The notes below the pieces were generated by a model. That model saw only the letters and a program-made list of their open reading frames with translations, did no database searches and was not told where the DNA came from. A DNA stretch of 64,000 bases from assembly GCA_017499595.2 (NCBI GenBank), contig CM039002.1, positions 2,790,001 to 2,854,000 on the forward strand. Reading direction: 5' to 3'. This stretch comes from Psilocybe cubensis (lineage: Eukaryota). Numbering within the stretch: the first letter of the stretch is position 1; each line of letters starts with the position of its first letter. The position numbers and the translations under genes are program-made. Below, piece by piece: positions 6,115-23,925 of the stretch.

Positions 6115-6214
6115 NNNNNNNNNNNNNNNNNNNNNNNNNNNNNNNNNNNNNNNNNNNNNNNNNNNNNNNNNNNNNNNNNNNNNNNNNNNNNNNNNNNNNN
6201 NNNNNNNNNNNNNN
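6115..6214. other. Assembly gap (100 N)
   Basis: Run of 100 N, a placeholder for a gap of unknown size; it truncates the 3' end of the minus-strand cargo gene. Confidence 0.99.
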
Positions 6215-8102: not shown

Positions 8103-11100
8103 ATGGTTTCCATCAACTCTGCTTATGCTCCTGCTTCTCCCAAGCCTACATATGCCGATGTGGTTGCTGGTGATCGCTCGCCCTCTGCTGAATACAAGTA
8201 AGCCGTTCCATGTTATTCTATGTACAGTTTATGATTTTAAACGTTGTGCGTTGTAACAGACATCGTCCTGCAAAAGGCATTCGCAACGTCATAATCCACG
8301 TCAAACCCGACAACAAAGAAGATTCTTTTTCTGTTGCCACTGACTCTGATGACGGACCGTTAGACAGCGTCGCCTCTCGCATTGCTGCCGCAAAGGTCGT
8401 CAAACCGGGGAACAAGACTGTTGCGTACGTGTATCCCATACTATCTTACCCTGTGTCTTCAATCACGCACGTCGTTTACATGCGTTCCTTCCGTTTTCTT
8501 ATCTCTGTATTGCAGCGGATCAGATGCGTTGGACAATTTTGTTAGGAAGACCAGGTCAACAAGTGGCTTGTATGATTTTAGCTGCACATTCCGCACTTTT
8601 TTTCTTTTGTTTTGACTACTTTATTGTCGTTATAGGAAACGCGATATCGAAGATGCTGCGCTCGTTTGTTCCGATGAGGAGTTGCCGTTAGTGAAATTGC
8701 AATCTGATAACCCTTATGTTATGCTGATATTTTGGTTTTGTTATATATTTACCTCAGAGCCCGAATTTCCCCTCCGAAGAAGAGTCGTACATCCGTCAGC
8801 GCGAACGTTGATGCGACTGTCAATCACGTATCTTACTCGAGTGATTCTTCGGTCGAAGTCATTCGAGTCGTCGATAATTCGTAAGTTTTACTGCTTGTAT
8901 CAAATCTCGCCATTATTTCGTTCTGCTTAATACCGTTGGATACTCTGAACAGAGCCAACGCCCGATATCAGAAGGGTATTAGTGATGCCATATTAGTCGA
9001 TGATTCATCCGCGGATGAAATGGTCTCTGTTCATCCTACCAGCGGGTATGTTTATCATTTACATCTTTTATGTTATTATGTCATACGTTCTCACATCCGC
9101 GTATTACAATTCGTGCTCCTGTCAGAGCAAAACCGAATAAACAGAAAGGCAAGAAGCCACAGAAGACAATGCCCCAAACGGTCCGTATCAAACAAGAGCC
9201 TGGCATTGTCATAAAGCAAGAAGCATCTGCTCGTCCCACGTCCGTATTGCCCTCTGAAGTTATGGTTAAGAAAGAGTCTGTCGATGTTCATATCCCTCTT
9301 GCACCGGATAACGTTGCGTCCACCCCCACAAAGAAAGACAAAGGAAAATCATCCGTTTCAAAGAAGGGCTCTGTTGGGATTCGTAGATCCGCTCGGCGTT
9401 CGGAAGCTGCGATCGAGCGAGTACCGTTCTCTTTTATTCCACATTGCGATTGACTGACGTCCTGCTCTTAGTCTGTCGGTGTCTCCGCTGAAGATTGGGT
9501 CTGAAATTTCTGGATCTGCTGTTTTGTCTCCACCCATTACTTTGCAGGGTGATGCTGATTCTGATATCAACCCCTTCTTGCCGTCACCTGAAGTCATTTT
9601 GGGCACCAAGTATGTGTATGCTCTAAAAGTCTACGTGAGCATCACTTAACTTGATTTACAGAATTCCAGGAAAAGGCAAATCCATTCGCATTGTTCTTCC
9701 CAGCGGTCCAATCGATCTTCACGAAGATGAAGCTATGATGTTTGCGTCAGTAATGTTCATTTGTGGTGTTTTTCTTTTATCACTTCTTAATCGGGTTTGA
9801 TCAGGCACGCGGTCAGAGAGAGTCGAATGCATCAGACCACTTATCCATCTTCCAATGCTCTCCCCAGCGGTCCTTCCTCTAGCAAGTTGCTCAAAGCGCT
9901 CGATGATGCGTATGAAAAGTACAGTGAAGCAGATGCTCTTAAAACCGAACATTCGACTTTGGACCCCCCTGTTCAATTTAAGGCGTCTGTAATAAGGTAA
10001 ATATCCGTCATGCCAATATATGTGATCGTCTTTATCTACCTTTATTCAACAGTGCCAAATCTATCGACGCGCATTCTGATGTGGTTATGGCCAGTCTTTC
10101 TGAACAGCCAAAAACTCGACAAGTGCAGTTTCAATCTTCTTTGACAGCTGTTCCAATCAATGCCGCTGTTGAAGCTCCCCCTACACCTGTCACTCCAGTT
10201 CGAGTTCCCCGCAAGTTCAAGGATGTTGTGCCTGCCGGTCCTGTGAACAAAACTCCCAGTCTTGGATTGAACGGGCCGGCTCTGATGGAGGATACCATGC
10301 GCTTCTCGGTCAAGTAAGTTAACGTACCCATATGTCATCTTCAATCTGTTGTCTGACTTGATTTGTGTCTGACCTTAAGACATCTGCCGAAGAAATGCGA
10401 AGTTACGAAGACAGATTTACAAGATAGTCTTTTAGAAAGCACTTACGTTGACCTTCCCAATCTTCAGTAAGTTTTTACCTTCTAAGATAATCGATGTTTT
10501 GTTTTGACTATTTCAAGGCATGGTATTCTCAAGCAATGGAACTCGCCTAATGTCATGGCACCAGTCGACTGTGTTTCTTTTTCTCTCTGCGGTGAGAATT
10601 TCCCTGAGATGAATTTTGAGTGAGTTTCGTAAAGCCTTTGCTATACTTTACTTAATGATGCGTATTGCTTACTCTCTCTACTATGTTATATAGAAACGCT
10701 TATGACGCTGTGACTTTTGTAAGGAACAAGAACTTTATCAATCCTTCGCGGGTTTCGCCTCTGGACGTCAGCATCCTGTATATGGGAAACGATCGTAAGC
10801 GTGCCACTTTGCAGTGCAACTCGGTGCCTGCTATCTGCCTGAGTGCAATTCTCACCCGCGATTCGTATCTATTGGAGCCGATATCCAAAGGACTGTGTAA
10901 CAAATTTTTGTCTGGTCACATGATGCACCAGGAGTGGGAACGCTTCGCTGGATTTGCTTGCATGGCGTTCGGACATCAGGTTATGGTAGCCTCTATCCGT
11001 GATAAGGCAATCACCTTTGGCACTATGGGAGTTAAATGTCAGTGGGCACATATGCTTACTTTTTTTTTTTTTTCTTTTTGTACTCACTCAGACACTCACT

Positions 11101-11570
11101 CAAATAGCGGAGCGGGAATCAATCTCTCCTTCAAAACCTCCTAGGACACCCGGCATACTTTCTGGACAGAAAGATGCCAAACTCCAAGGAGGAAGCCGAA
11201 AAGCACTTAAATCAAGCACCAGGTTCAAGACCATGATGGATTCAACCGACACTAGTAAGTTATCAACATTGTATGTGCTTCAAACCACTGACAATGTCAT
11301 ATATTAGTTCCCATATATGATTCACGTAACCATGCCTTCAATTTCAACACTGACCTCGACCGGTTAGACGAATTGCTACCTAGATGGCGTCGCGGAGAGA
11401 TTCCACCTAACTCCTTTGTTATGGTGGCGTACACTATGACTCAATACGAGAAGGAACGGTCATTTCATCTGTGTACCAACATACAGTATGCCGTTGTGTT
11501 CGGTACGGAACACGATACCAGCGACATAGAGGCAGAACAGGAGTCCTTTGCAGGTTTTGATGAAGACTGA
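8103..11570 (+). CDS. Element-borne multi-exon protein: disordered N-terminus plus C-terminal putative OB-fold/SSB-like domain with acidic tail
   Basis: Many short GT-AG introns link the ORF pieces; conserved-looking C-terminal blocks NFINPSRVSP, QEWERFAGFACMAFG, VPIYDSRNHAFNFNTDLDRLDELLPRWRRGEIPPNSFVMVAYTMTQY...LCTNIQYAVVFG; ends EHDTSDIEAEQESFAGFDED*. Confidence 0.65.
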
Positions 11571-11959
11571 ATATTTCATTAAACCTAATGTCTTTTAATA
11601 CACATAGTTATGGTATTATTTACATTCTCCTTGCTATCTGTTGTTATTTTTTGGTATCATATACGTCGCGTAGTCTATTACTTCAATGTTTTTGTTCTTT
11701 CTTCGTGTCATTTGTACTCTGCTTCCTGTATCTTTGAATATCCAGTTAGTATTCTGTCTTATCAACTGCTTCGTATCATATTCTACTTGTCTTCCGTACA
11801 AATTTCTCCCGATATAATAATACATACATATTATCATGGCATTACAGTTGGACATATGCTTTTCCTTTGCGTGTCCCCTCTGCCAAAATTTAAGCGCCCG
11901 TTGTCAATAATCGTACGCTACACAGAGTTACCCGGTGTTACCTGTTGTCAGTGTCTACT

Positions 11960-11967
11960 TATATAAA
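11960..11967 (+). promoter_or_regulatory. Putative TATA box of the RepHel gene
   Basis: TATATAAA about 140 nt upstream of the inferred ATG at 12103, followed by a pyrimidine-rich tract. Confidence 0.4.
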
Positions 11968-12102
11968 TCGAGGGTCCTCGATGCGATTCCTTTAATTATT
12001 CCTACACATTCCTCCCCCCCCCCCTTGATCGATCTCACACTCATATCCATCAGACTAGTGAACATATCTATTTACCTTGAAACTTACATTACTCTTTTAT
12101 AT

Positions 12103-15100
12103 ATGCTCGCCGCATCACTTCATTTCTACGCTCTTTTTATTTTAGTTTCTGGTTGGGGTGAGTTATCTTCTCCTTATGTGTACTGTGTATGATCTGACAT
12201 TTGTCGCTATTTTGTAGGAATCCTATGTGGCCACATACAATGTTGCATTAATGTACACTCCTTGAACGCATCCAATTATGCTGGTGATTCTCGAACAATA
12301 TCGATGCTTAGTAGTTGTATAGCTGTCAATCAACAGTTGTTTAAAACAAATAATTGGTCAATAGACTTTTGCTTACCCTGTGGGGAATTTCCAACCTACG
12401 ATGTTCGATTTCCTGGCAATAATCTATTGCGTAGTCGTACATGTACTAGATCTAGCAGCGTATCAAGTGGGCACAAAGTTTGTAGAGTGCGTCTTACTGT
12501 AGTATTAGTTCATGTTATGCATTGCTTGAATCGTACTACTACGTCCGCTTCTGAGATACCCGTCAAACAGTCCCACTCGTATGGAAATGTGCGTTTGTTG
12601 CACTCGCAATTTCGCCGCTTCATATATATTGATTGTCATTCAATGTCGGCTTATTTGTGGTTAAGATTCACGCCTGCAACGTATACACGTAGAGTTTCTA
12701 TTTTAGTATCTCTGTTGCTCCAACGTAATCATCTCAGGAAGTGGGAATATAATAGGTGCCTGGTAGCCATTTTGCCAAGATGCGCCTTGCATCAATTCAC
12801 GCTCGACAGACATTACACGCAACCTCGTCTTTGGTCAGAGAAATATCCCTTCATTAATATAGTATCGAAGGGCGTTCTAATGTATCCGTTTCAGTGTTCC
12901 TGGTTATTCGGTCTCAACTATTTCCACTACATCTCATTTACTGCTAATGTTTCTGAATGCTCATACTATCATCCTTCCGATGTCTTGCAAGGCGGAGGTG
13001 GCGGTGTTTCAAAGGTTGTCAGCTCAGAGATTTTGCGATACCGTGTGGTACAAGATACGGGATGTGCCTCCGTTCAAGCTAAAACTAAATACAGATTTGT
13101 GAAGTACCTTGCTACAGACGCTCACATTTCAACTTCCATTGACAATATATCTGATTTAATAGTTGCTAGGTTCTCTCTCTTTGACACTGCTAGTTGGCTG
13201 TCTGTTTCTGAAATTAGGTCTATTGCAAGTTTACATGGAGTGTACGGCATCAATTCAACCACAAATAGAGGCAATGCCATTGAACTTTTGCGTGATCATG
13301 TGTGCGGAACTTGCCTTCGTAATGTCTGTATTTTTGAACGTGTGGTATCAGTGTCAGATAGAAAAATTAAGAGCAATTCATCTTCTTGTAATCCAGATCG
13401 GCAGTTTGAACTTACAGACAGTGCTGTAAATTTTTCTCGCTTCGTTTCATCTGCTTTAATAGAAAGTCATATTGTACCCTATAGTGGCACAGCATCGTTT
13501 AATTATAGTGATACATACAAGTTCGTTAGGTATATGCCGTACATACGTGATTTAGAGTCATTTCTCTCTGCCGAAGCGTCCGCACCCCACAAACGCCGTC
13601 TAGTTCTTTGTCGATTTTCTATACAAAGTGCAACCAAATGGCTCACTTCAAGCGAGCTTCGGGATGTACTGAAAGAACACGGTATTACATCATTTAATTC
13701 CAAGACCAAAAAATCTGCTCTGATAAAATTAACAGATGGTCATGAATGTGGTATATGTTCCACTCATTTATATATCTTTGAGGCAATACCTAGTACAGTC
13801 AATTCAGAAGAGTCAATCATGCATAATCGTAACCAAAATGTTCTACATAAACGAGCATCTCGAGAACGTCAGAGGCAGGCAGGCGCAGAATCTGCTAATT
13901 CCGATGTTGACATGCTCAACGGTGATGCTTTTGTATCCACATCAGACTCTGACCACACTTCAAACGACCATGTGTTTCCGCCACAACCACCGTCAAAGCT
14001 TCTGATAGAGGAAATCATCAATGGATTTTGCGCTGATTCATCTGCATCTCTACTGGAGGAAGCAGGCTGCATGGTCTGCGGTCTGCTGCAGCCTTTGCAT
14101 AATTTAACTCACTTGTCTATGTTTGATCATCCCCTTGACATACTCGCAGTTGAGGGAGCTACCCGTGTAGAGAGATTACATCCTGACGACCCGGTGAAGG
14201 ACATCCCGGGCCCTGTGATCGATCCTGCATGTAACCATGTATGCGATACTTGCTCTGCTGCGTTGAAAAAAGGTCATGTGCCGAGACATTCGCTTGCAAA
14301 TCATTTGTGGTTAGGTAAAATACCTTCTCAGCTGCAAGATCTTTCGTTTGCAGAGCGCATGATGATTGCTCGCATTCGGCATAATCGCTGTCTGGTCAGA
14401 GTTTCCTCTGGGCGGGCTAAAATGACAGCAAATGTCATCATGTACTCTAATCCAACGCTGAAAGTGTATCATGAATTACCTCCTTCAAAGCCAGAACTTG
14501 ACGAGGTACTTGCCTTTATATTTACAGGACCAACCCAACCCACGGAAGAAGAGTTCAAGCGTAGTCCAATGCTAGTGCGTCGCAATAAGGTCGCAGATGC
14601 TCTGGAATGGTTGAAACTTAACCATAAGGATTATATTGATCTTGAAATATCCAAGAAAAATCTCCAGTCTTACCCGCTGATAGGTGTCCCCGTAGCTGTA
14701 GACTACAGACAGCGCAACGGTACTAATCGTATGGAGTCTACAATGAGTCTACACGACGAAGGCGAAGATGAAGGAACTGTAGACGGACCTTGTCCGTTTA
14801 CTGTCCATGGCTTGAGTGGAACAGACTATGGCAATATGTCCATACAAGCTTTGAAGGCAAAAGCCTTGCAACACATAGAAAATGAAGGCAAAATGCTAGC
14901 TATTGGGCATGATCCAAAACCGCAGTCTATGTACGATAATCCTCAGGCCTATCCGCAGATGTTCCCTTGGCTATTTCCTTACGGTTATGGTGGAATAGGT
15001 CAGCATTGTCATAAGCGTAAACTTTCAGAGTCAGAACATAAGCGAATACTGCTTATGCACCATGATAAGCGTTTCCAGCGCGACCTTTATTTTCCTATTA

Positions 15101-18100
15101 TTGCATTCAATCACGAGCAACTGAAAGGTGGCGTTACTGGTAGCTTTCTTGTTGCAAAACGCCGTAATTTTGATGCGATATCTAAAAGATTGCTCTCTAT
15201 AGACAAAACGGTTCTTCAAGACATTTCCTCTCGTCTTGTAAATGGGGACCATGTATCACCTGAAACAGACAGTGAGAAAGACTGTTACAAACTTTTAGAT
15301 GATCTTGACCACGTTGGAGGATATGTTAAAGGGTCAATCACGTCTAAAAAGTATATGCGCAATGAGATATGGTCTTTGCTTTCTTTCAAAGGTTGCCCAA
15401 TATGGTTTATAACCTTGTCACCTGCCGATAACAGACATCCTATATCAATATATTATGCCAAAGAACAGCTGACCTTTACACCAGACATATTACCTTCTTC
15501 TGAAAGGAATAGACTGGTTGCACAGAATCCCGTATCGGCTGCCCGTTTTTTTCATCTCATAATTGAATTGTTTATTAAACACGTGCTAGGCGTCGGATCC
15601 AATATTCATCGAGGTTTGTATGGTAAAACTTCAGCGTACTATGGTACGGTAGAACAGCAGGGAAGACTCACCTTACATTTGCATATGTTACTATGGATTG
15701 AGAATTGCTTGTCTCCACAGCAAATCCGTGACCGTATTATGAACAACGACTCTGCATTTCAGGCGAGCCTTCTATCATATTTGGAAGGCTGTCATCAAGG
15801 CGAATTTCTTACAGGAAACATGCAGACTGTTAAAGACCGCGTGCCACATATTTACGACAAAGAAATTGATGGACTTCATTCAATTATACAAGAGGATGAC
15901 GAGGCTGTAAATTCCAGTTACGCAGATCCGACTCTAACACTCCCTATACCGGTAGAACATGCTTGTCAAGATTCCAATGGTCCGGACCACTGCACATCAT
16001 GCATTTCTAATGCTGAATGGTGGGACAATTACGAAACTACAGTCGATGATATCATATTGAAGTCCAATGTGCACAGATGCACTGTTTCATACGGTCAGCA
16101 AATTGATGACCCTGACGGATCAAAAGGTATAAAAAATATGCCTAAGGGCCCGAAAGGTTGCCTGGATTGGAATGGAAATTGTAAAGCACGATTTCCGCGA
16201 AGGCTGTACGAACAGTCTCAAGTCGATCACGTCGACGGTCACATATTTTTGAAAAAGTTGGAAGCGATGTTAAATACCTTTACTCTTCCGCTGTCGTACC
16301 TCACAAGAAGTAATACCGACGTGACATGTCTGTTGTCGGGTACTTCGATAAAAGCAATAATATATTATATATCAGACTATATTAGCAAACCCGCATTGAA
16401 AACGTATCAGATATTTACCTCTATGTATGACGTGTTTGAACGTGAAGAAAAAAAAGTTAAAGACGATGTCAAGATTGAAGGTAAAGACGCAGGCAGAAGG
16501 TTGATGCTTAAAATTGTCAACTCTCTGTCTTCTAAGATGGAGATAGGTTCTCCGATGGCCTCCTTGTATTTATTGGGCAACCCTGATCATTACACTGATC
16601 ATACCTTTGTACCTTTTTGGTGGAGAAGTTTTGTAAGTGACGCAAGGAGCAGTCATAAATCCGGTATCACTGATGACCAAGCCGCCCACCTACCTACCGT
16701 AGAGGATCTAGAAAATGCTGAAGATGAAGAACAGAAAGTTATATTAGCTCGACATGACGGTCATTATGTAGGTTCTAGTAATGTAGATGATTATAAATAC
16801 CGCCCAGTCACTCAAGAAGACATGTCTCTATTCGACTGGATTAGATCTTATGAGCGCCGTAAGCTCACTAAAAATGAAATGGAGCGTTTGCGTAGTGAAA
16901 CACTCACCTTCGAAGATGATCATGCGTCCGACATACGTGAAGGCGGGGGGATGGAAGATTTCATTGATGCATGTCTTGGTATACCTGCAGATGATGATTC
17001 TGATCAACGTGTTAAATATGACGGTGTGCGAAAAAATATTAAAATAAACAAAAGAAGTTTTGAACGTTTCACTGAGGAGCACCCTCTTTATTCCACTCAC
17101 GTAGTCAAATGTGACTCATCCCGAGCGCACAATATTGTCCCCAATTTTCTAGGCGGTCCCCTTCCACGGCGCGACAAAGGCGACAGAGAGTATTATTGTT
17201 GCAGTATGCTGACCTTGTTCAAACCTTGGAGGTCTGGGTTAGATTTGAAATCATTGCATCAGACTTGGGAACATGCATTCACCATTTACGCTTTTTCCGA
17301 CCGACAGTTGAAACTAATGGATAACTTTAATCTGCGATATGAATGTTTAGACGACAGAGACGATTTTCACGCACAGTTAAGAAGGAAAGACGGAGAACAA
17401 CAAGATGTTTACACGGATGAACTCTATCCTGATGGTTGCGGTCTCGACGATCAATACAACGACTTTGTCGGCCTTGAATTCGGTGAAGATCATTTAGATT
17501 ATGAAGAGATTGGTGAGGCATACCGCAGAGAGGTGTTGTTAAAGCGAGAAGTAGATGGCATCATACAATCTGCAGGATTGTTTTCTAACGCCTCTAGCGA
17601 TGTTACATGTCAAGAAGTCAGCATGTTCAGGCCTGCTGAATACAAGACGCATACGAGCTGGGCATCTCTAATAAAAGCTGAAAAAATTAGACTGTTTAAA
17701 CAGAAGTTGTCCGGTTACGTGCCTTCAGATCCCTCAGATGATATAACAAACATTCATATTTCCAACGAAGAGTCTACTAATGACGTCAAAGTAGTTTCTT
17801 CGGATTATCTGCTCAGGTCGTACAAGGCAAAGCAAATGGAACATAATGTGTTAGTAGATTCTACAGTCGCCGATTTCACCTTGAATACGGAACAGGAAAG
17901 GGCTTTCCGTATTGTTGCCAATCACGCTAGTTTGCTGTCGCCTGGTCAGCTGAGGATGCATCTCGGTGGCATGGGCGGTACTGGCAAAAGTCAAGTGATC
18001 AAATCTATCATTCATATGTTTGAGTCGAGAGGCGAATCTCACCGATTTGTGGTTCTCGCACCCACAGGTACCGCTGCTGCACTCCTCAACGGATCTACTT

Positions 18101-20619
18101 ATCACAGTGTATTAGGAATACGGTCCAAGTCGGATCGTGGTCAAGACTTTTCAAAAAACGAAGTCGCAGTAATAAATGACGTACGAGCTCGATTAAAGGG
18201 TGTCAAGTATATCTTTATTGATGAAATATCTATGCTGTCGTCGAGGGATTTATATGCCATTAGTAGACGTCTGTCACAAGTGTTTAACGACGATACACTG
18301 TTCGGAGGTATATCAATGATCTTAGCTGGTGACTTCGCTCAGCTACCGCCGGTAGGTAATCTCCCCTTTTATAGTCCTTCCATTAAACATACGCAAGACG
18401 CTCGCATGAAGGTGTCCGAGCAAGAAGCTACTCTAGGCAAGATATTCTGGCACCAATTCACGACTGTCGTTATTCTAAAACAAAACATGAGACAAAAAAC
18501 GCAGACTGAGGAAGACGCAAAGTTGCGCACTGCACTTGAAAACATGCGGTATGCCGCCTGTACAGACGCTGATATATCGTTCCTCAAGTCAAGGTTAGCT
18601 TCTAAACTGACGACTATTGAAGGTAAACCTATATTGACTGACCCTGCTTTTCGCAACGTATCTGTTATCACTGCGTGGAATAATCAAAAGGATAGGTTCA
18701 ATGAGCAGGGCATCGCAAGATACGCTAAAGAGAGCGGACGTACATTGCATCATTTTTTCTCTGTCGATAGTCTGGGTACACAAGAAGGAGAAACTCGCAG
18801 GCCTCGCGGACGACCATCAGGATCGTCTAAAGCAACCAAACAGACAAAGATGTCCCAGCGTCTTCAGGAAGCCCTATGGGGTCGCAGCGCCTGTTCTAGC
18901 GAACAAGTGCCAGCAAAACTTTCTCTGTGCGTAGGTCTGCCAGTTATGATACGGCATAACGACGCCACAGAGTTGTGTATCACTAAAGGACAGGAGGCTG
19001 TCGTCGTAGGATGGGAATCTTCTGTTGGTGCGTTTGGTAGACCTGTACTTGATACGCTGTTCGTGGAATTAATCAGACCGCCGAACCCTGTATCATTAGC
19101 TGACTTGCCTGTTAATGTTGTTCCACTTACGCGAACGTCGTCTCGAGTAACATGTACTCTCAAGTCTGGCACAAAAATCAATGTAAACCGCCAGCAGGTA
19201 TTAGTGCTGCCCAATTTTGCCATGACCGATTATTCGTCTCAAGGTAAGACGCGAGATTATAACTTGATACATTTAGATCATTGTAAGGATCATTCGTCTT
19301 ATTACACCTGTGTATCTAGAAGTTCGAACGCCAGTGGTACCATCTTACTCGGTAGATTCGATGCGTCTAAGATTACAAAGGGTATTAGTGGGCACCTGCG
19401 CCAGGAATTCCGTGAACTCAATATATTAGATCATATCACCACCATGAAATACAATGGACAGCTTCCAGACGGCGTGTTGCATGGATTAAGGAATCCGACA
19501 ATTCGGTCTTTCATGCTTCTCGACGTATCGCAATCCATTGGTACAGACTGGCATCCTACCTTGGCAGTCTCTTCATCAAAGCAGCTTATCAGAACTCCGG
19601 AAAAGGACGGCACCTGGTCTCTCAACAGTGTTAAGGCAATTGTCACCGACAGGGCAAAAGATAAGCGCAATAAGCGCCAACCAATTCGCTCAGACTGTAT
19701 AGGACCGAGGAAACGAATGTTGCTAAGCACACCCTCCGAGTTTGCGGTCCTACCTGTAGGTACAAAGTGGGACGCGGACAACTACAGTTGCAGTTACGAC
19801 TCCATCTTTACCGTGTTATATAACCTATGGATAAGTGCACCTGAGATGTGGACCAATAGATTCAGTGATTTGACACCGTTATTAGACAGACTCAGCGGAC
19901 AATTCGCACTTGTGCAGAATGGATCAATTTCTCTAGAGAGCGCACGAAACGACGTCAGAAACGATATGCACTCACGCAGCCCGCTTGATTTTCCTATGGG
20001 TCCAAATATGACATACATTGACAGAGTTATGACCGCTGTGATGGGCCAGCGATCTTCTGGAATGTCTGTTCTCGTGTGCAGTAAATGCGGCTACAATGAC
20101 CAAAGACCCGTAATGCGACTAGGCGAATATATAAGTGTGGCACGCACTGGCGTTTTCCACGACGACTCCCAGGAGGTGTCTTCTATTTCAGACAGTTTAG
20201 GTTTTAACCTGAGCGATGCTCAACGATTGAGTTCGAAGAATTGCCCTTCGTGTGCACAAAATCAGCATATCGTATATATGTCGCTATGCCATAAGGTTGA
20301 ACGATTACCTTACATTATGACAGTGGATATATGCTCGCCACGGTTTGCTATAAACCCTGATATTATGTTCAAATCGGATAGTTTCAACGTAGAGTATAAG
20401 CTTACTGGGGTTGTCTACGGCGGGCAACATCATTTTGTTTCTCGGTATGTTGACCTGCAAGGGGACGTGTGGTTCCACGACGGCATTACTACTGGAAATA
20501 GATGCGTAAAGGAGGGTAATGTTCATGACCTTGTTAATGATGTATCTCAATGGCTACGCATTTCCGTAAATGGGGGAAACTTGAAACATGCATTGTATGC
20601 TATTTACGCGAGGGAATAA
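12103..20619 (+). CDS. Helitron RepHel protein (DUF6570-like + HUH Rep + Pif1 helicase + C-terminal USP-like peptidase); exon 1 12103-12157, intron 12158-12217, exon 2 12218-20619
   Basis: 8.4-kb stop-free ORF. Rep motifs PIWFITLSPAD, YYGTVEQQGRLTLHLHMLLW (HUH) and YYISDYISK; Pif1 motifs GMGGTGKS, LAPTGTAA, IFIDEISM, GDFAQLPPV, QNMRQ, FAMTDYSSQGKT, YTCVSR; DUF6570-like LANHLWLGKIP..LQDLSFAE and VRRNKVADALEWLKLNH; C-terminal NYSCSYDS and HHFVSRY..WFHDG. Confidence 0.92.
13015..13790 (+). repeat. Internal ~140-aa domain duplication in RepHel (helix-extended-helix-like segment plus H-x-C-x2-C)
   Basis: Copy 1 KYRFVKY...ARFSL..TASWLSVSEIRSIASLHGV..INS...LLRDHVCGTCLRNVCIFE; copy 2 TYKFVRY...CRFSI..ATKWLTSSELRDVLKEHGI..FNS...LTDGHECGICSTHLYIFE. 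Confidence 0.75.
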
Positions 20620-21221
20620 GATGAAAATTTATCCAAAGTGTTTTATGGTTATGGAGGCCTCAGTTGATACATGCTCAGATAACAACTGTTTATATTCATA
20701 TCAGTATGGTATTTATCGTTCGATAGTGTCGCAGCGTATCAGTCTATTAGACTCAGCTGTATAATCTGAACCCATAGACTACATTGCATCGAGCATCGTG
20801 TGGTTGAAAGGACGATCCAAAAGCGTGGGAGAATGTCGTACATGTTCCTTTAATACCTTCGCATCAAAGGGATATCGGAACTTGCCGAAATTTCGTTCAC
20901 CGCTCTGTTTAAGAACTGTGCCTATCCGACTTGAACACCTTTTTCGACGTTGTCATTTGCTGCCACATCGTACCAGTATTCGTATCTTCAAGGCTAATAT
21001 ACAATATTTGTTAGGCTGTAGGTTATATTACGATATATGATAGAAATATTGATGGTATTCTAAATGTGTTCAAATCGATAGTTCATTTTGAAGAACACCT
21101 TAAACCTGTCAGCGACTGCTTTGCAGAGTCGTTGCTTTAGTATGTCTATATCTACTCACGCAATGCTATACATATAAACGGCAAATTTTTAATTTTTTTT
21201 CTGCTTCTTTTTAGACTACCT

Positions 21222-23925
21222 ATGGCTCCCAACCCATTCTTGGACTTAGAAGCGAATGTCGATCACGGAGATTCAGAGGATGGTTCAGCCGAATCTGACG
21301 AATTTGGTGCGCATAATATTTCGTTTTACTCAGTCTCATGTCATTCCAACATACGAGATAAACCAAATTTACTCGCAGAATGCTTCATCGACGACGGAAC
21401 TCAATCCCATGAAGATTGTGACGGTTCATCATCTGTGGCAATGGACAAACCCATTCCTGTTACAAAGAGAGACCGACTGGCCCTCGTAATTCAACAAATT
21501 GAAGAGAGAACACGTGGTAGATCTCACTCACTGCCCGCCTCTGATATGTACCGGGGTGTGGAACCATTGTATTCAAACGCTGACAATCCTACTGTTTTGT
21601 CACCGCACGGAAACACTGATTCGGGCTTCGAAAATCTGCCCACGGACTATCCTACATGGAGGATTGGATGTAAAGTAAGTTTAATACCATCGAATTAAAT
21701 TTGTGTGTTGCCAACCATATCGATGAACAATACGTAAGGTCGGATACGAAGAAATCGCGGTCGCTTCTTTACTCAAAAACTCGCGCCGAGAACATCATAT
21801 TCGGTCCGCGTTTTCACGCAGTTCTGTACATGGATACATATACTTGGAATGTTTGATGGATCAGCCTATGATTGACCTTATCAAAAGATCGCCCGGCATC
21901 ATCGTAAAAACTACGGACGTGCTCCTGAGTCCGATCGATAAGAATGAGGCTCAGCAACTGTTGTACATGGGAGGGGACATTACGAACCTATCGGTCGGAA
22001 AATGGCTCAAGGTTAAACGAGGTGTATACAAAGGCGATGTAGGCTTTGTCGTTTCGAAAGGATCGTGGGGGGTGTCAATGCTTATGATCCCCCGTTACGA
22101 GTACGTGTCCACCAAAACGAAGTCATCTCGTAAACGGAAGACATACACTGCGGTGCCCGCGCCTAAGCTATTCGATCCGACAGGCCTTCGTAACTCTCAT
22201 TTATACATAGAATCAGGCAGAGCATCTGTCTATCGCGTAGGTGATCTGATCTTTGAGCATGGTTTGGCCCGGGTGGACTACGATCCCAGACACGTTGCCT
22301 CATGTCGTGAAGGTCTGAGTTACGTGACGTATACATCATTTTGTATGAGTGGGCATCCCGCACTCCATCACGCGCCGATACCAAAGCCAAAGGAATGGAT
22401 CATGCGAACCATGGAATGGGTGGTAATGAGATCTACAGGTTGGCTCGGAGTCATTGCGCAAGCCGACGACGATAATATGGTCGATGTCGATATATACAAC
22501 AAAGGCTGCGACCATGACGAAACTGGTCAACATTACAACGAAACTGAAATCCACAGAGTTGATACAACTACGACCCAGCTGTTGACAACAATACGCACCG
22601 TATGGAGTGACATCTTAAAACATTTCGAAATAGGGGATTACGTAGGGGTTGACGCTGGCGTTAATGCTGGACGATCGGGTTGGGTCGTGGACATCAAGGG
22701 AGATGAAATACAACTAATCGATAAGCAAGGCACTACAAAAGACCAGCAAATCAATACAGCCGACTCGATGTTGGAGGCAAGTATTTGTCATTTAACCGTA
22801 TATATACTCTGGCTCATGCATACATCTCAGATTATATATATGCACAGGAATTTCGTTTCTCTGGGAGATGCGACGACATGTCAGCCTTCATCGCTCCTCG
22901 CGCTTATCCCAACATCACACACGACCCGATATCATCGTTGGAAAGGTGTAACTGTGATAGTGAGCAAGGTACATCATACGTTCAAAGGCTTAATCGGCAT
23001 TGTCGCCGAGGTACTACAGTCCGTAAGCCCAAGAACAGGTCAACCTGAGTTGCGTTTAGTTGTAGAGCCGACTCGATATGATCCGTCGAATCCCTTCAAG
23101 AAAATTGTTTTGAACAGAGACGACGTACTGGAATACAGGTAAGCGTATTTCATTTACCGATTTGTACTCGCGCTCACGGCTTGTAGTACCTTTGAGCCTC
23201 TAAGCCTGTCGAAGACGTATGATTCGAACGCTGTCCACCAGTCTCGTAACTTCGCCAACCCATCGATCATAATAACCACAGGAACTGAAAGCGCTGACAG
23301 TGGCAGACATACACCATTGCCTGATACTATTGAGGACACCTCGCCTGCGTGGGATCCATCTGACCATTCAGAAGATTTAACAAGCATTAGCATAGGAACC
23401 GTCGTCGTAAATTCAAGCGACGGTACCAACGTTGCATCTTTAACCACTCCTTGTAATCTTTTGTTGAAACGAGAGCTGATTGGAGTTCCTTTGACGGTGG
23501 AAGAGGCAACCGTCGATGGACACGTTTCTCCGTTGTTTGTAATCGTTCAGGAGGACGTGGATGGGCAGCTGTGCATGATGCGATTTACACCCAATTCGAA
23601 GCGGACGTTACGGATTGAATCGACCCATATAAAGCCCAAACATCCTACCATCAAGCACGACTTTGGGTTATTAGCCATCATTGAAGGAGAACACGCGGGT
23701 AAATGCGTCAGACGTGTGCATTCTAGGAAGGATACCAATGGCGTGGTATTGGTGGTCAAACAAGTACTGCCCACTGATCGAGGAGCTGATCAAATAGTGG
23801 ATGGCGAGCTATTGACGCCAACCGAAAATTGTTGTGTGGCCTATGAAACTCAAAAGAGAAAGAATGCTAATCGGAATCAGATGAGACACGAACACGATAT
23901 TTACATTAGTACTCATTTGCCATAA
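21222..23925 (+). CDS. Spt5-like protein (acidic N-terminus, NGN domain, multiple KOW motifs), element-borne, about 5 exons
   Basis: NPFLDLEANVD...FIDD acidic N-terminus; TWRIGCK/VGYEEIAV...IRSAFSRSSVHGYIYLE (NGN); KOW-like GKWLKVKRGVYKGDVGFV, GDYVGVDAGVNAGRSGWVVDI, TFKGLIGIV, IIEGEHAGK; TSPAWDP resembles an Spt5 C-terminal repeat unit. Confidence 0.78.

Follow-up and report, generated by a model that had tools for sequence, protein, structure and literature searches.

Pro-protein-like architecture of a Psilocybe cubensis Helitron transposase with an invariant Gly-Gly junction and a predicted C-terminal USP-fold protease

Results

The stretch of Psilocybe cubensis DNA analyzed here (64,000 nucleotides, positions 2,790,001 to 2,854,000 of the forward strand of contig CM039002.1, assembly GCA_017499595.2; hereafter the window, whose coordinates we use throughout) carries on its + strand a large gene that, when splicing is not taken into account, appears as an open reading frame (ORF) of 2785 amino acids at 12262..20619, starting at a TTG. 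Pfam recognizes three domains in its product: DUF6570 (14269..14667; E 1.3e-39); Helitron_like_N, the Rep (HUH) domain (15049..15693; E 5.2e-33), with HLH at 15676-15684 (residue 1139) and YxxxY at residue 1369; and a PIF1-like helicase core (17881..18516; E 4.9e-27) with the Walker A motif GGMGGTGKS, matched by AAA_19 and AAA_30 as well. Together, these domains identify the gene as that of a Helitron RepHel transposase. Beyond this core, we describe (i) a hidden first exon, (ii) a leader ending in an invariant Gly-Gly and (iii) a C-terminal domain predicted to adopt a USP fold, an arrangement that, judged by comparison with relatives, is real, conserved, pro-protein-like and apparently undescribed.

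A homologue search with the DUF6570/Rep region yielded 534 proteins at E <=1e-10, the best 120 of which are used for the counts below. Among these 120, few have a named source, all of them Gymnopilus; the relatives named from Flammula and Mycena are short C-terminal ones. We read the window gene as the transposase of an autonomous Helitron from a large family, in which the members with a named source are mushroom-forming fungi. BLAST alignments of the relatives to the window protein start at about residue 241-245 (numbered, like the domain positions, from the TTG), which is the position of the Gly-Gly, and mostly reach the C-terminus. For comparison at the DNA level, metagenome contigs were scanned with one of the homologues (P0017), which gave L001, with an intact frame of 2670 codons, and L002, which is degenerate; the two are 87.7% identical over the gene. 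The intron support and the ratios of nonsynonymous to synonymous substitution rates (dN/dS) reported here both derive from this one pair of relatives.

The start of the gene is best placed at the ATG at 12103-12105, upstream of the TTG, as proposed by an earlier reading made from the sequence alone. The proposed gene model comprises a 55-nt exon 1 (12103..12157; 18 codons plus 1 nt, phase 1), which would encode the hydrophobic N-terminus MLAASLHFYALFILVSGW(G), a 60-nt phase-1 intron (12158..12217) with GTGAGT at 12158-12163, CTGAC at 12194-12198 and TAG at 12215-12217, and a single exon that runs to the stop at 20619. All of these elements lie exactly where the sequence-only reading had located them. 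The spliced product starts with MLAASLHFYALFILVSGWG/ILCG, is in frame with the ORF at 12262..20619, and comprises 2818 amino acids, with a leader of 276 amino acids preceding GGGGG. Left unspliced, ATG 12103 opens an upstream ORF of 29 codons, and the sole stop in its frame, TGA 12190-12192, lies within the intron. When we scanned for intron-like patterns (GTRNGT...CTRAY...YAG, 45-120 nt), 44 were found in 128 kb (both strands), of which only 12158-12217 fell within 11500-13100; by a rough estimate, the chance of such a pattern occurring there, spanning the only stop and keeping the frame, is about 1 in 100.

A TATA-like box, TATATAAA (11960..11967), read from the sequence 136 nt 5' of ATG 12103, and a pyrimidine (CT) tract between the two (12010..12026) may serve as promoter elements; L001 likewise has a CT-rich stretch, directly ahead of its exon-1 ATG. 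The only ATG between the TATA-like box and 12103, at 11981, opens a frame of 4 codons. From 12103 to the next in-frame ATG (12304) there are six ATGs out of frame, and the final in-frame ATG ahead of the Gly-Gly is at 12880; hence, for the first conserved domain to be produced, ribosomes must translate some or all of the leader. Two sequencing runs presumed to be RNA, which carry the same species label, gave no alignments at 11000-22000. Introns within RepHel genes from Pleurotus Helitrons have been detected by RNA sequencing, in a passage that does not state their positions (PMC4289320).

The relatives support the hidden exon and its intron. In L001, MLLDILSFYLCIIYAYLLL is encoded from an upstream ATG (2556) whose frame is not that of the body, and a 55-nt phase-1 intron (GTACTT...CTGAT...CAG), which is required to reach the main frame, joins this exon 1 to the body exactly; L002 has a homologous hydrophobic exon 1 with the same two-frame layout. 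Both introns are in phase 1 and at the homologous place, that of the window lying one codon earlier than that of L001, and the window exon shares M1, L2, L6, F8, Y9 and I13 with the L001 peptide. The hydrophobic N-terminus (M......[F/S/L]Y) recurs in L001 and L002 and, in frame, in the predicted proteins P0004, P0011, P0014 and P0027, and the strict N-terminal pattern occurs in 3 of 96 leaders versus 0.05 expected from shuffles. On these comparisons, the hidden spliced first exon of the window gene holds as a feature of the family rather than a product of chance.

The part of the leader encoded by exon 2 (12218..12990; residues 19-276 of the spliced protein) is hydrophobic, rich in cysteine and aromatic residues and poor in acidic residues and lysine. 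The leader frame (12193-13005, 271 codons) contains no stops, as compared with 12 and 21 in the other + frames and 14, 15 and 21 in the - frames. The compositional character assigned to the leader in the sequence-only reading is borne out by the contrast with the rest of the protein in grand average of hydropathy (+0.06 versus -0.41), cysteine (5.1% versus 2.0%), F+W+Y+H (18% versus 12%) and D+E+K (6% versus 18%). Homologues have an open stretch upstream of the Gly-Gly with a median length of 261 amino acids (10-90% range 84-380, n=100), and the leaders of the family consistently exceed the remainder of their proteins in hydrophobicity and in C/W/F/Y/H content and contain less D/E/K. The predicted proteins P0005 and P0087 begin right at the motif (MGGG... 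and VGGG..., respectively), so that some copies may start without a leader.

Most leaders (82 of 96) form one BLAST-linked group, which shares the motif C..[LI].L.[LF].R...[RK][KR]HD[FY] (R is present in 64 of 81, H in 69 of 82, D in 73 of 82). Where a homologue leader fits this pattern (n=46), the motif lies 33-154 amino acids, commonly 55-80, ahead of the Gly-Gly. BLAST does not connect the window leader with any of the other leaders; it does contain, in register by MAFFT alignment and 80 amino acids before the Gly-Gly, a degenerate form of the motif, RRVSILVSLLLQRNHLRKWEYNRCLVA (12688..12768), in which HD is replaced by WE. This segment is predicted to form a helix by AlphaFold2 (AF2), with a predicted local distance difference test (pLDDT) of 79-87. 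The match of the window copy to a hidden Markov model (HMM) of the leader motif is not significant taken alone (E 0.083), one of the shuffled controls outscoring it. Other searches with the leader were likewise negative: a word-seeded homologue search of long proteins with residues 1-330 gave 0 of 1322 candidates, the window and L001 leaders had no Pfam match and no PDB sequence match, and an ESM Atlas search with the window leader found no match. The language-model recognition score of the window leader is low, the AF2 model of residues 100-380 has low confidence across the leader except for the motif helix, and Foldseek and a wide VIA-align search matched the leader to no solved structure, with nothing above Z 6.4.

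Despite this divergence, the leader appears to be translated and selected, though weakly, in the relatives. Between L001 and L002, its in-frame dN/dS is 0.36 (211 codons; 95% bootstrap 0.23-0.53), as opposed to 1.02 and 0.94 for the wrong-frame controls, 0.25-0.29 for the first 400-500 codons after the Gly-Gly and 0.08-0.14 for the Rep/helicase core. The in-frame value indicates that the leader of these relatives is translated and under weak constraint, and the comparison supports the view that the leader is a translated, selected and fast-evolving part of the family. The synonymous rate (dS) itself reaches 0.58 in the leader (L001 2671-3318), as against about 0.35 over the remainder of the gene, a difference that could reflect alignment, composition or local mutation rate.

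The leader ends at DVLQGGGGG (12979-13005), and both this peptide and the stop-free frame leading up to it are present as previously noted; the glycines (GGC GGA GGT GGC GGT) occupy 12991..13005. A profile of the first domain downstream matched 113 of 121 proteins, and its start was reached in 103. Gly-Gly is found at the junction in each of the 103, and in 101 it is preceded by a third small residue (G 87, A 14), the other two having VGG or RGG. In a wider sample, obtained by comparing a profile of the window and L001 first domains with 1.84 billion representatives (50% identity), there were 92 matches, mostly short fragments; all 58 that could be aligned at the domain start have Gly-Gly, 54 of them as [G/A]GG and the other 4 as SGG, DGG, EGG and VGG. 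The residue at position -1 is hydrophobic in 79 of 101 homologues (I 25, V 21, Y 12, F 11, M 5, C 5), with F at position -2 in 31 and R at position +3 in 39. The conserved motif is hydrophobic-[G/A]-G-G; hence, of the L-x-G-G site originally suggested, the Gly-Gly is invariant and the leucine at P4 is not conserved. Among the six conserved Gly-Gly pairs in 29 full-length rows, the junction alone has unconserved flanks (0.29/0.30 versus 0.58-0.93). AF2 assigns a pLDDT of 34-46 to GGGGG and of 90-97 to the domain immediately following it, suggesting that the junction is a flexible linker.

Several other explanations of the invariant glycines were considered and set aside. A signal at the DNA level is unlikely, as the Gly codons vary among the window, L001 and L002; a 3' splice site is argued against by the in-frame dN/dS of the leader, which indicates translation; and a start at M-GGG does not fit, Met being found at -1 in only 5 of 101 homologues, all five with a leader upstream, and the window copy having no ATG there. 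A ubiquitin-like fold before the Gly-Gly was dropped as well: AF2 predicts helices and coil over the preceding 65 residues (pLDDT 34-58), with no beta-grasp and no structural match, at a confidence too low for a firm negative. Two further conserved x-V/L-G-G motifs that resemble F-[I/V]-G-G, both within conserved surroundings, were noted elsewhere in the protein: DLDHVGG (residue 1017; 15310-15321), before the Rep core, and VPNF[V/L]GG (residue 1628; 17143-17157), between Rep and helicase; they may be additional cut sites or have a structural role.

As the sequence-only reading had indicated, a folded domain directly follows the Gly-Gly (13006..13392; HMM match residues 240-377), although it is a family-specific fold of about 130 amino acids rather than a readily recognizable one, being HeH/SAP-like, with an H.C..C motif, at sub-threshold Pfam scores only. 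A second copy (13435..13875) has no Gly-Gly at its start, its HMM match beginning at profile position 13, and gives a Pfam HeH/LEM score of 22.4-26 bits, under the cut-off of 28.9. This domain is also in tandem in P0009, P0011, P0015-P0018 and P0027, and is single in most other relatives.

The C-terminal 291 amino acids (19744..20616) are predicted to form a USP-fold cysteine protease domain with a CxxC...CxxC zinc ribbon. With an alignment of 34 rows, AF2 folded residues 71-361 of the modeled piece at pLDDT >90, and among the Foldseek matches listed all are catalytic domains of the USP family (best E 2e-10); VIA-align gave Z 15-17 over 230-258 residues with USP12, USP46, USP1, USP54, USPL1, CYLD, USP18 and USP30. 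Conservation and position in the model single out a candidate triad of Cys2510 (19789-19791), at the N-terminus of a helix, His2724 (20431-20433), at the start of a strand, and Asp2740 (20479-20481), after the next strand. Among 101 complete domains, the Cys and His are present in all 101 and the Asp in 100, and each of the four zinc-ribbon cysteines is present in at least 100. Pfam UCH and UCH_1 do not match the domain even at E <=10, and a PDB sequence search with it found no match; it is thus a USP-fold domain rather than a Pfam-level member. The assignment to the USP family therefore stands in fold and triad, and not in Pfam membership, with structure prediction indicating a USP fold whose candidate triad is intact.

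Cleavable signal peptides have a basic n-region, an h-region of 7-15 residues and a polar c-region whose positions -3 and -1 are occupied by small residues. The window N-terminus (MLAAS...) has no Lys or Arg among its first residues, nor do those of L001, L002, P0014 and P0027, and its hydrophobic stretch of about 19-22 amino acids (19-residue Kyte-Doolittle mean 1.70 at residues 4-22 of the spliced protein) is long for a cleavable signal. The signal peptide proposed in the sequence-only reading is therefore not established; the stretch looks more like an anchor. Elsewhere in the leaders, transmembrane-like segments are not in excess (42 of 95, versus a shuffled mean of 46.3).

Discussion

USPs and coronavirus PLpro cut after Gly-Gly; PLpro shares the USP fold (thumb, palm and zinc fingers) and, besides acting as a deubiquitinase, cleaves the replicase polyprotein at LXGG. 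By analogy, we propose that the window gene encodes a pro-protein, in which a hydrophobic N-terminus would be followed by a fast-evolving, selected leader of about 260 amino acids, mostly unstructured except for one helix motif, then by a flexible linker ending in hydrophobic-[G/A]-G-G, and then by two SAP-like DNA-binding modules, DUF6570, Rep (HUH), the Pif1 helicase and the USP-fold cysteine protease at the C-terminus. The USP domain, acting in cis or between molecules, would cut after the Gly-Gly and so free the working transposase from the leader, which might until then anchor, mask or destabilize it. The cut, the identity of the cutter and the role of the leader before its removal are what we infer, and we put forward cleavage at the Gly-Gly by the element's own USP tentatively, as a real possibility short of an even chance.

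A number of observations weigh against this proposal. Neither the window copy nor any other family member has yielded a cleavage product, a transcript or activity, and the leader motif is degenerate in the window copy, of which one DNA run showed no further copy at >=85% identity. The ubiquitin fold is what cellular USPs hold on to, while the stretch before the Gly-Gly is predicted, at low confidence, to be helical or disordered rather than a beta-grasp. Moreover, P3 is confined to G/A, a tighter restriction than at LXGG sites, and the P4 leucine is not kept. Every complete family member has both the Gly-Gly and the USP domain, so that their co-occurrence is uninformative; the 20 homologues with the Gly-Gly and without the USP domain are all shorter (1531-2338 amino acids), ending before it. 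A complex prediction of the USP domain with a 61-amino-acid junction piece, made without alignments and with an uncertain partner fold, scored 0.02 (mark 0.34) and weighs on neither side. Finally, the OTU, VTD, UCH and Ulp1 domains of Helitron-like elements are read, in the parts of the literature that treat them, as deubiquitinases or regulators of degradation rather than as processing enzymes (PMC9741609, PMC11417382).

The best-surviving alternative, which we regard as possible though somewhat doubtful, is that the Gly-Gly is an uncut hinge, or a structural or DNA-contact motif of the first SAP-like domain, that the leader is retained, and that the USP domain only deubiquitinates other targets, perhaps to keep the transposase or a host factor from being degraded. 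The recurrence of OTU, VTD and UCH in Helitron-like elements, where the relevant sections read them as protecting proteins from degradation (PMC9741609, PMC11417382), is in line with such a role, as are the placement of the Gly-Gly 1-3 residues ahead of the first strand of a domain predicted to fold with confidence, and the lack of a predicted ubiquitin-like fold before it. However, Ser, Asn or Pro should be acceptable in a plain hinge, whereas the Gly-Gly is retained in 103 of 103 and 58 of 58 sequences; the duplicated copy of the domain folds without it; the unconserved flanks are those of a linear motif; and a hinge gives no reason to expect a hydrophobic residue at -1.

An unlikely elaboration of the cleavage proposal is that exon 1 encodes a signal peptide or anchor that holds the pro-protein on the endoplasmic reticulum or nuclear envelope membrane until a USP cut at the Gly-Gly frees a nuclear RepHel; a virus-like polyprotein logic would then time or limit transposition across the whole mushroom Helitron family. 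It shares the evidence of the Gly-Gly and the USP domain, and the hydrophobic N-terminus of about 19 amino acids, with its Kyte-Doolittle mean of 1.70 in the window copy, is conserved in the window, L001, L002, P0004, P0011, P0014 and P0027. Against a membrane tether speak the lack of a basic n-region (the family has Asp at position 4), a stretch that exceeds the typical cleavable signal, a convincing in-frame N-terminal motif in only 4 predicted proteins, and transmembrane-like segments elsewhere in the leaders that composition explains.

That the leader is instead a functionless translated 5' region, its frame kept open only by ribosomes that initiate at the first AUG (12103) and have to read through to the transposase, would agree with its odd composition (T-rich codon positions 1 and 2, no G1 excess), with the poor folding and unmatched sequence of the window and L001 leaders, and with the low recognition score and lack of BLAST links of the former, but is quite improbable, as the dN/dS of the relatives, even at its upper bootstrap limit of 0.53, points to selection on the amino acid sequence and not merely on an open frame, and as both the HD[FY] motif and the N-terminal exon show conservation.

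The proposed self-cleaving transposase can be compared with several known systems. The likeness to PLpro lies in a USP-type fold with conserved Cys/His/Asp and a candidate hydrophobic-x-G-G site in a flexible junction of the same polypeptide. In contrast to PLpro, the window protein belongs to a DNA transposon, its protease lies about 2250 residues downstream of a single candidate site, P3 is only G/A and P4 is I/V/Y/F instead of Leu, and cleavage is a proposal here; furthermore, no PLpro chain is among the structural matches listed, all of which are cellular USP-family catalytic domains. In ubiquitin-fusion precursors (polyubiquitin and fusions of ubiquitin to ribosomal proteins), USPs trim after ...LRGG, and the window protein would similarly lose an N-terminal part ending in Gly-Gly to a USP-type enzyme. 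That part, however, is hydrophobic, about 260 amino acids long and predicted to be helical or disordered, as opposed to a beta-grasp of 76 amino acids, and the substrate would include the enzyme itself.

Helraiser-type RepHel proteins combine a Rep HUH domain, a Pif1-like helicase and N-terminal DNA-binding modules. The window protein has the same components, including HLH and YxxxY in its Rep domain, whereas its family adds the spliced hydrophobic exon, the leader of about 260 amino acids, DUF6570 and the C-terminal USP fold, for a total of 2818 amino acids. With membrane-tethered regulators that are described as cleaving themselves free, such as MYRF, the likeness is one of concept: a hydrophobic segment retains a protein that acts in the nucleus until intramolecular proteolysis releases it. 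There is no relation in sequence or fold, and the anchor in the window protein is putative.

Proteases are familiar cargo of related elements: Helentrons carry OTU and VTD, the latter read in the section concerned as protecting from degradation (PMC9741609), and UCH, OTU and Peptidase_C48 are listed among 20 recurrent extra domains in Helitron-like elements (PMC11417382). As in those elements, a ubiquitin-type cysteine protease with conserved catalytic residues is stably carried, there fused to or beside RepHel; unlike them, the window family has a USP-like domain at the C-terminus, below Pfam detection, in an element of the Helitron_like_N/PIF1 type. The relevant parts of these two papers connect the protease with neither an N-terminal leader nor a conserved Gly-Gly junction, and they leave open what protease and deubiquitinase domains do for Helitron-like elements (PMC9741609, PMC11417382). 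For that question, the window family offers a concrete candidate substrate.

In the openly available literature (subscription journals and supplements aside), we found no account of a self-cleaving Helitron transposase or of this arrangement. If the proposal is true, this would be, to our knowledge, the first eukaryotic DNA transposase known to carry the ubiquitin-type protease that matures it, and a USP cut at the Gly-Gly would point to a post-translational brake on transposition. Even without cleavage there, the spliced hydrophobic exon, the leader motif and the Pfam-invisible USP fold are features that ORF-based annotation misses.

Element ends and flanking sequence

Helitrons start with a 5' TC, end in a 3' subterminal hairpin and CTRR, and insert between A and T. 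A 57-nt block shared by L001 (12219-12275) and L002 (11441-11497) at 98% identity contains a short hairpin (GCCATGCAAAGCAGTGGC) and ends in ...CCGCAAGT, after which the two diverge; this common 3' end is probably the 3' terminus of the family, about 1.67 kb beyond the stop codon. Outside the ORF core, no DNA similarity was detected between the window copy and L001, and the 64-kb window contains neither repeats nor a second copy of the element. One DNA run has A at 14692 where the window has G, and otherwise supports a single contig matching at >=99%; a run of 100 N at 6115-6214 marks an assembly gap. Flanking ORFs have no Pfam family above threshold; among them, an ORF of 432 amino acids downstream of the transposase (21844-23142) gives a sub-threshold match to KOW1_SPT5 (E 0.0016, 18.9 bits versus a cut-off of 22).

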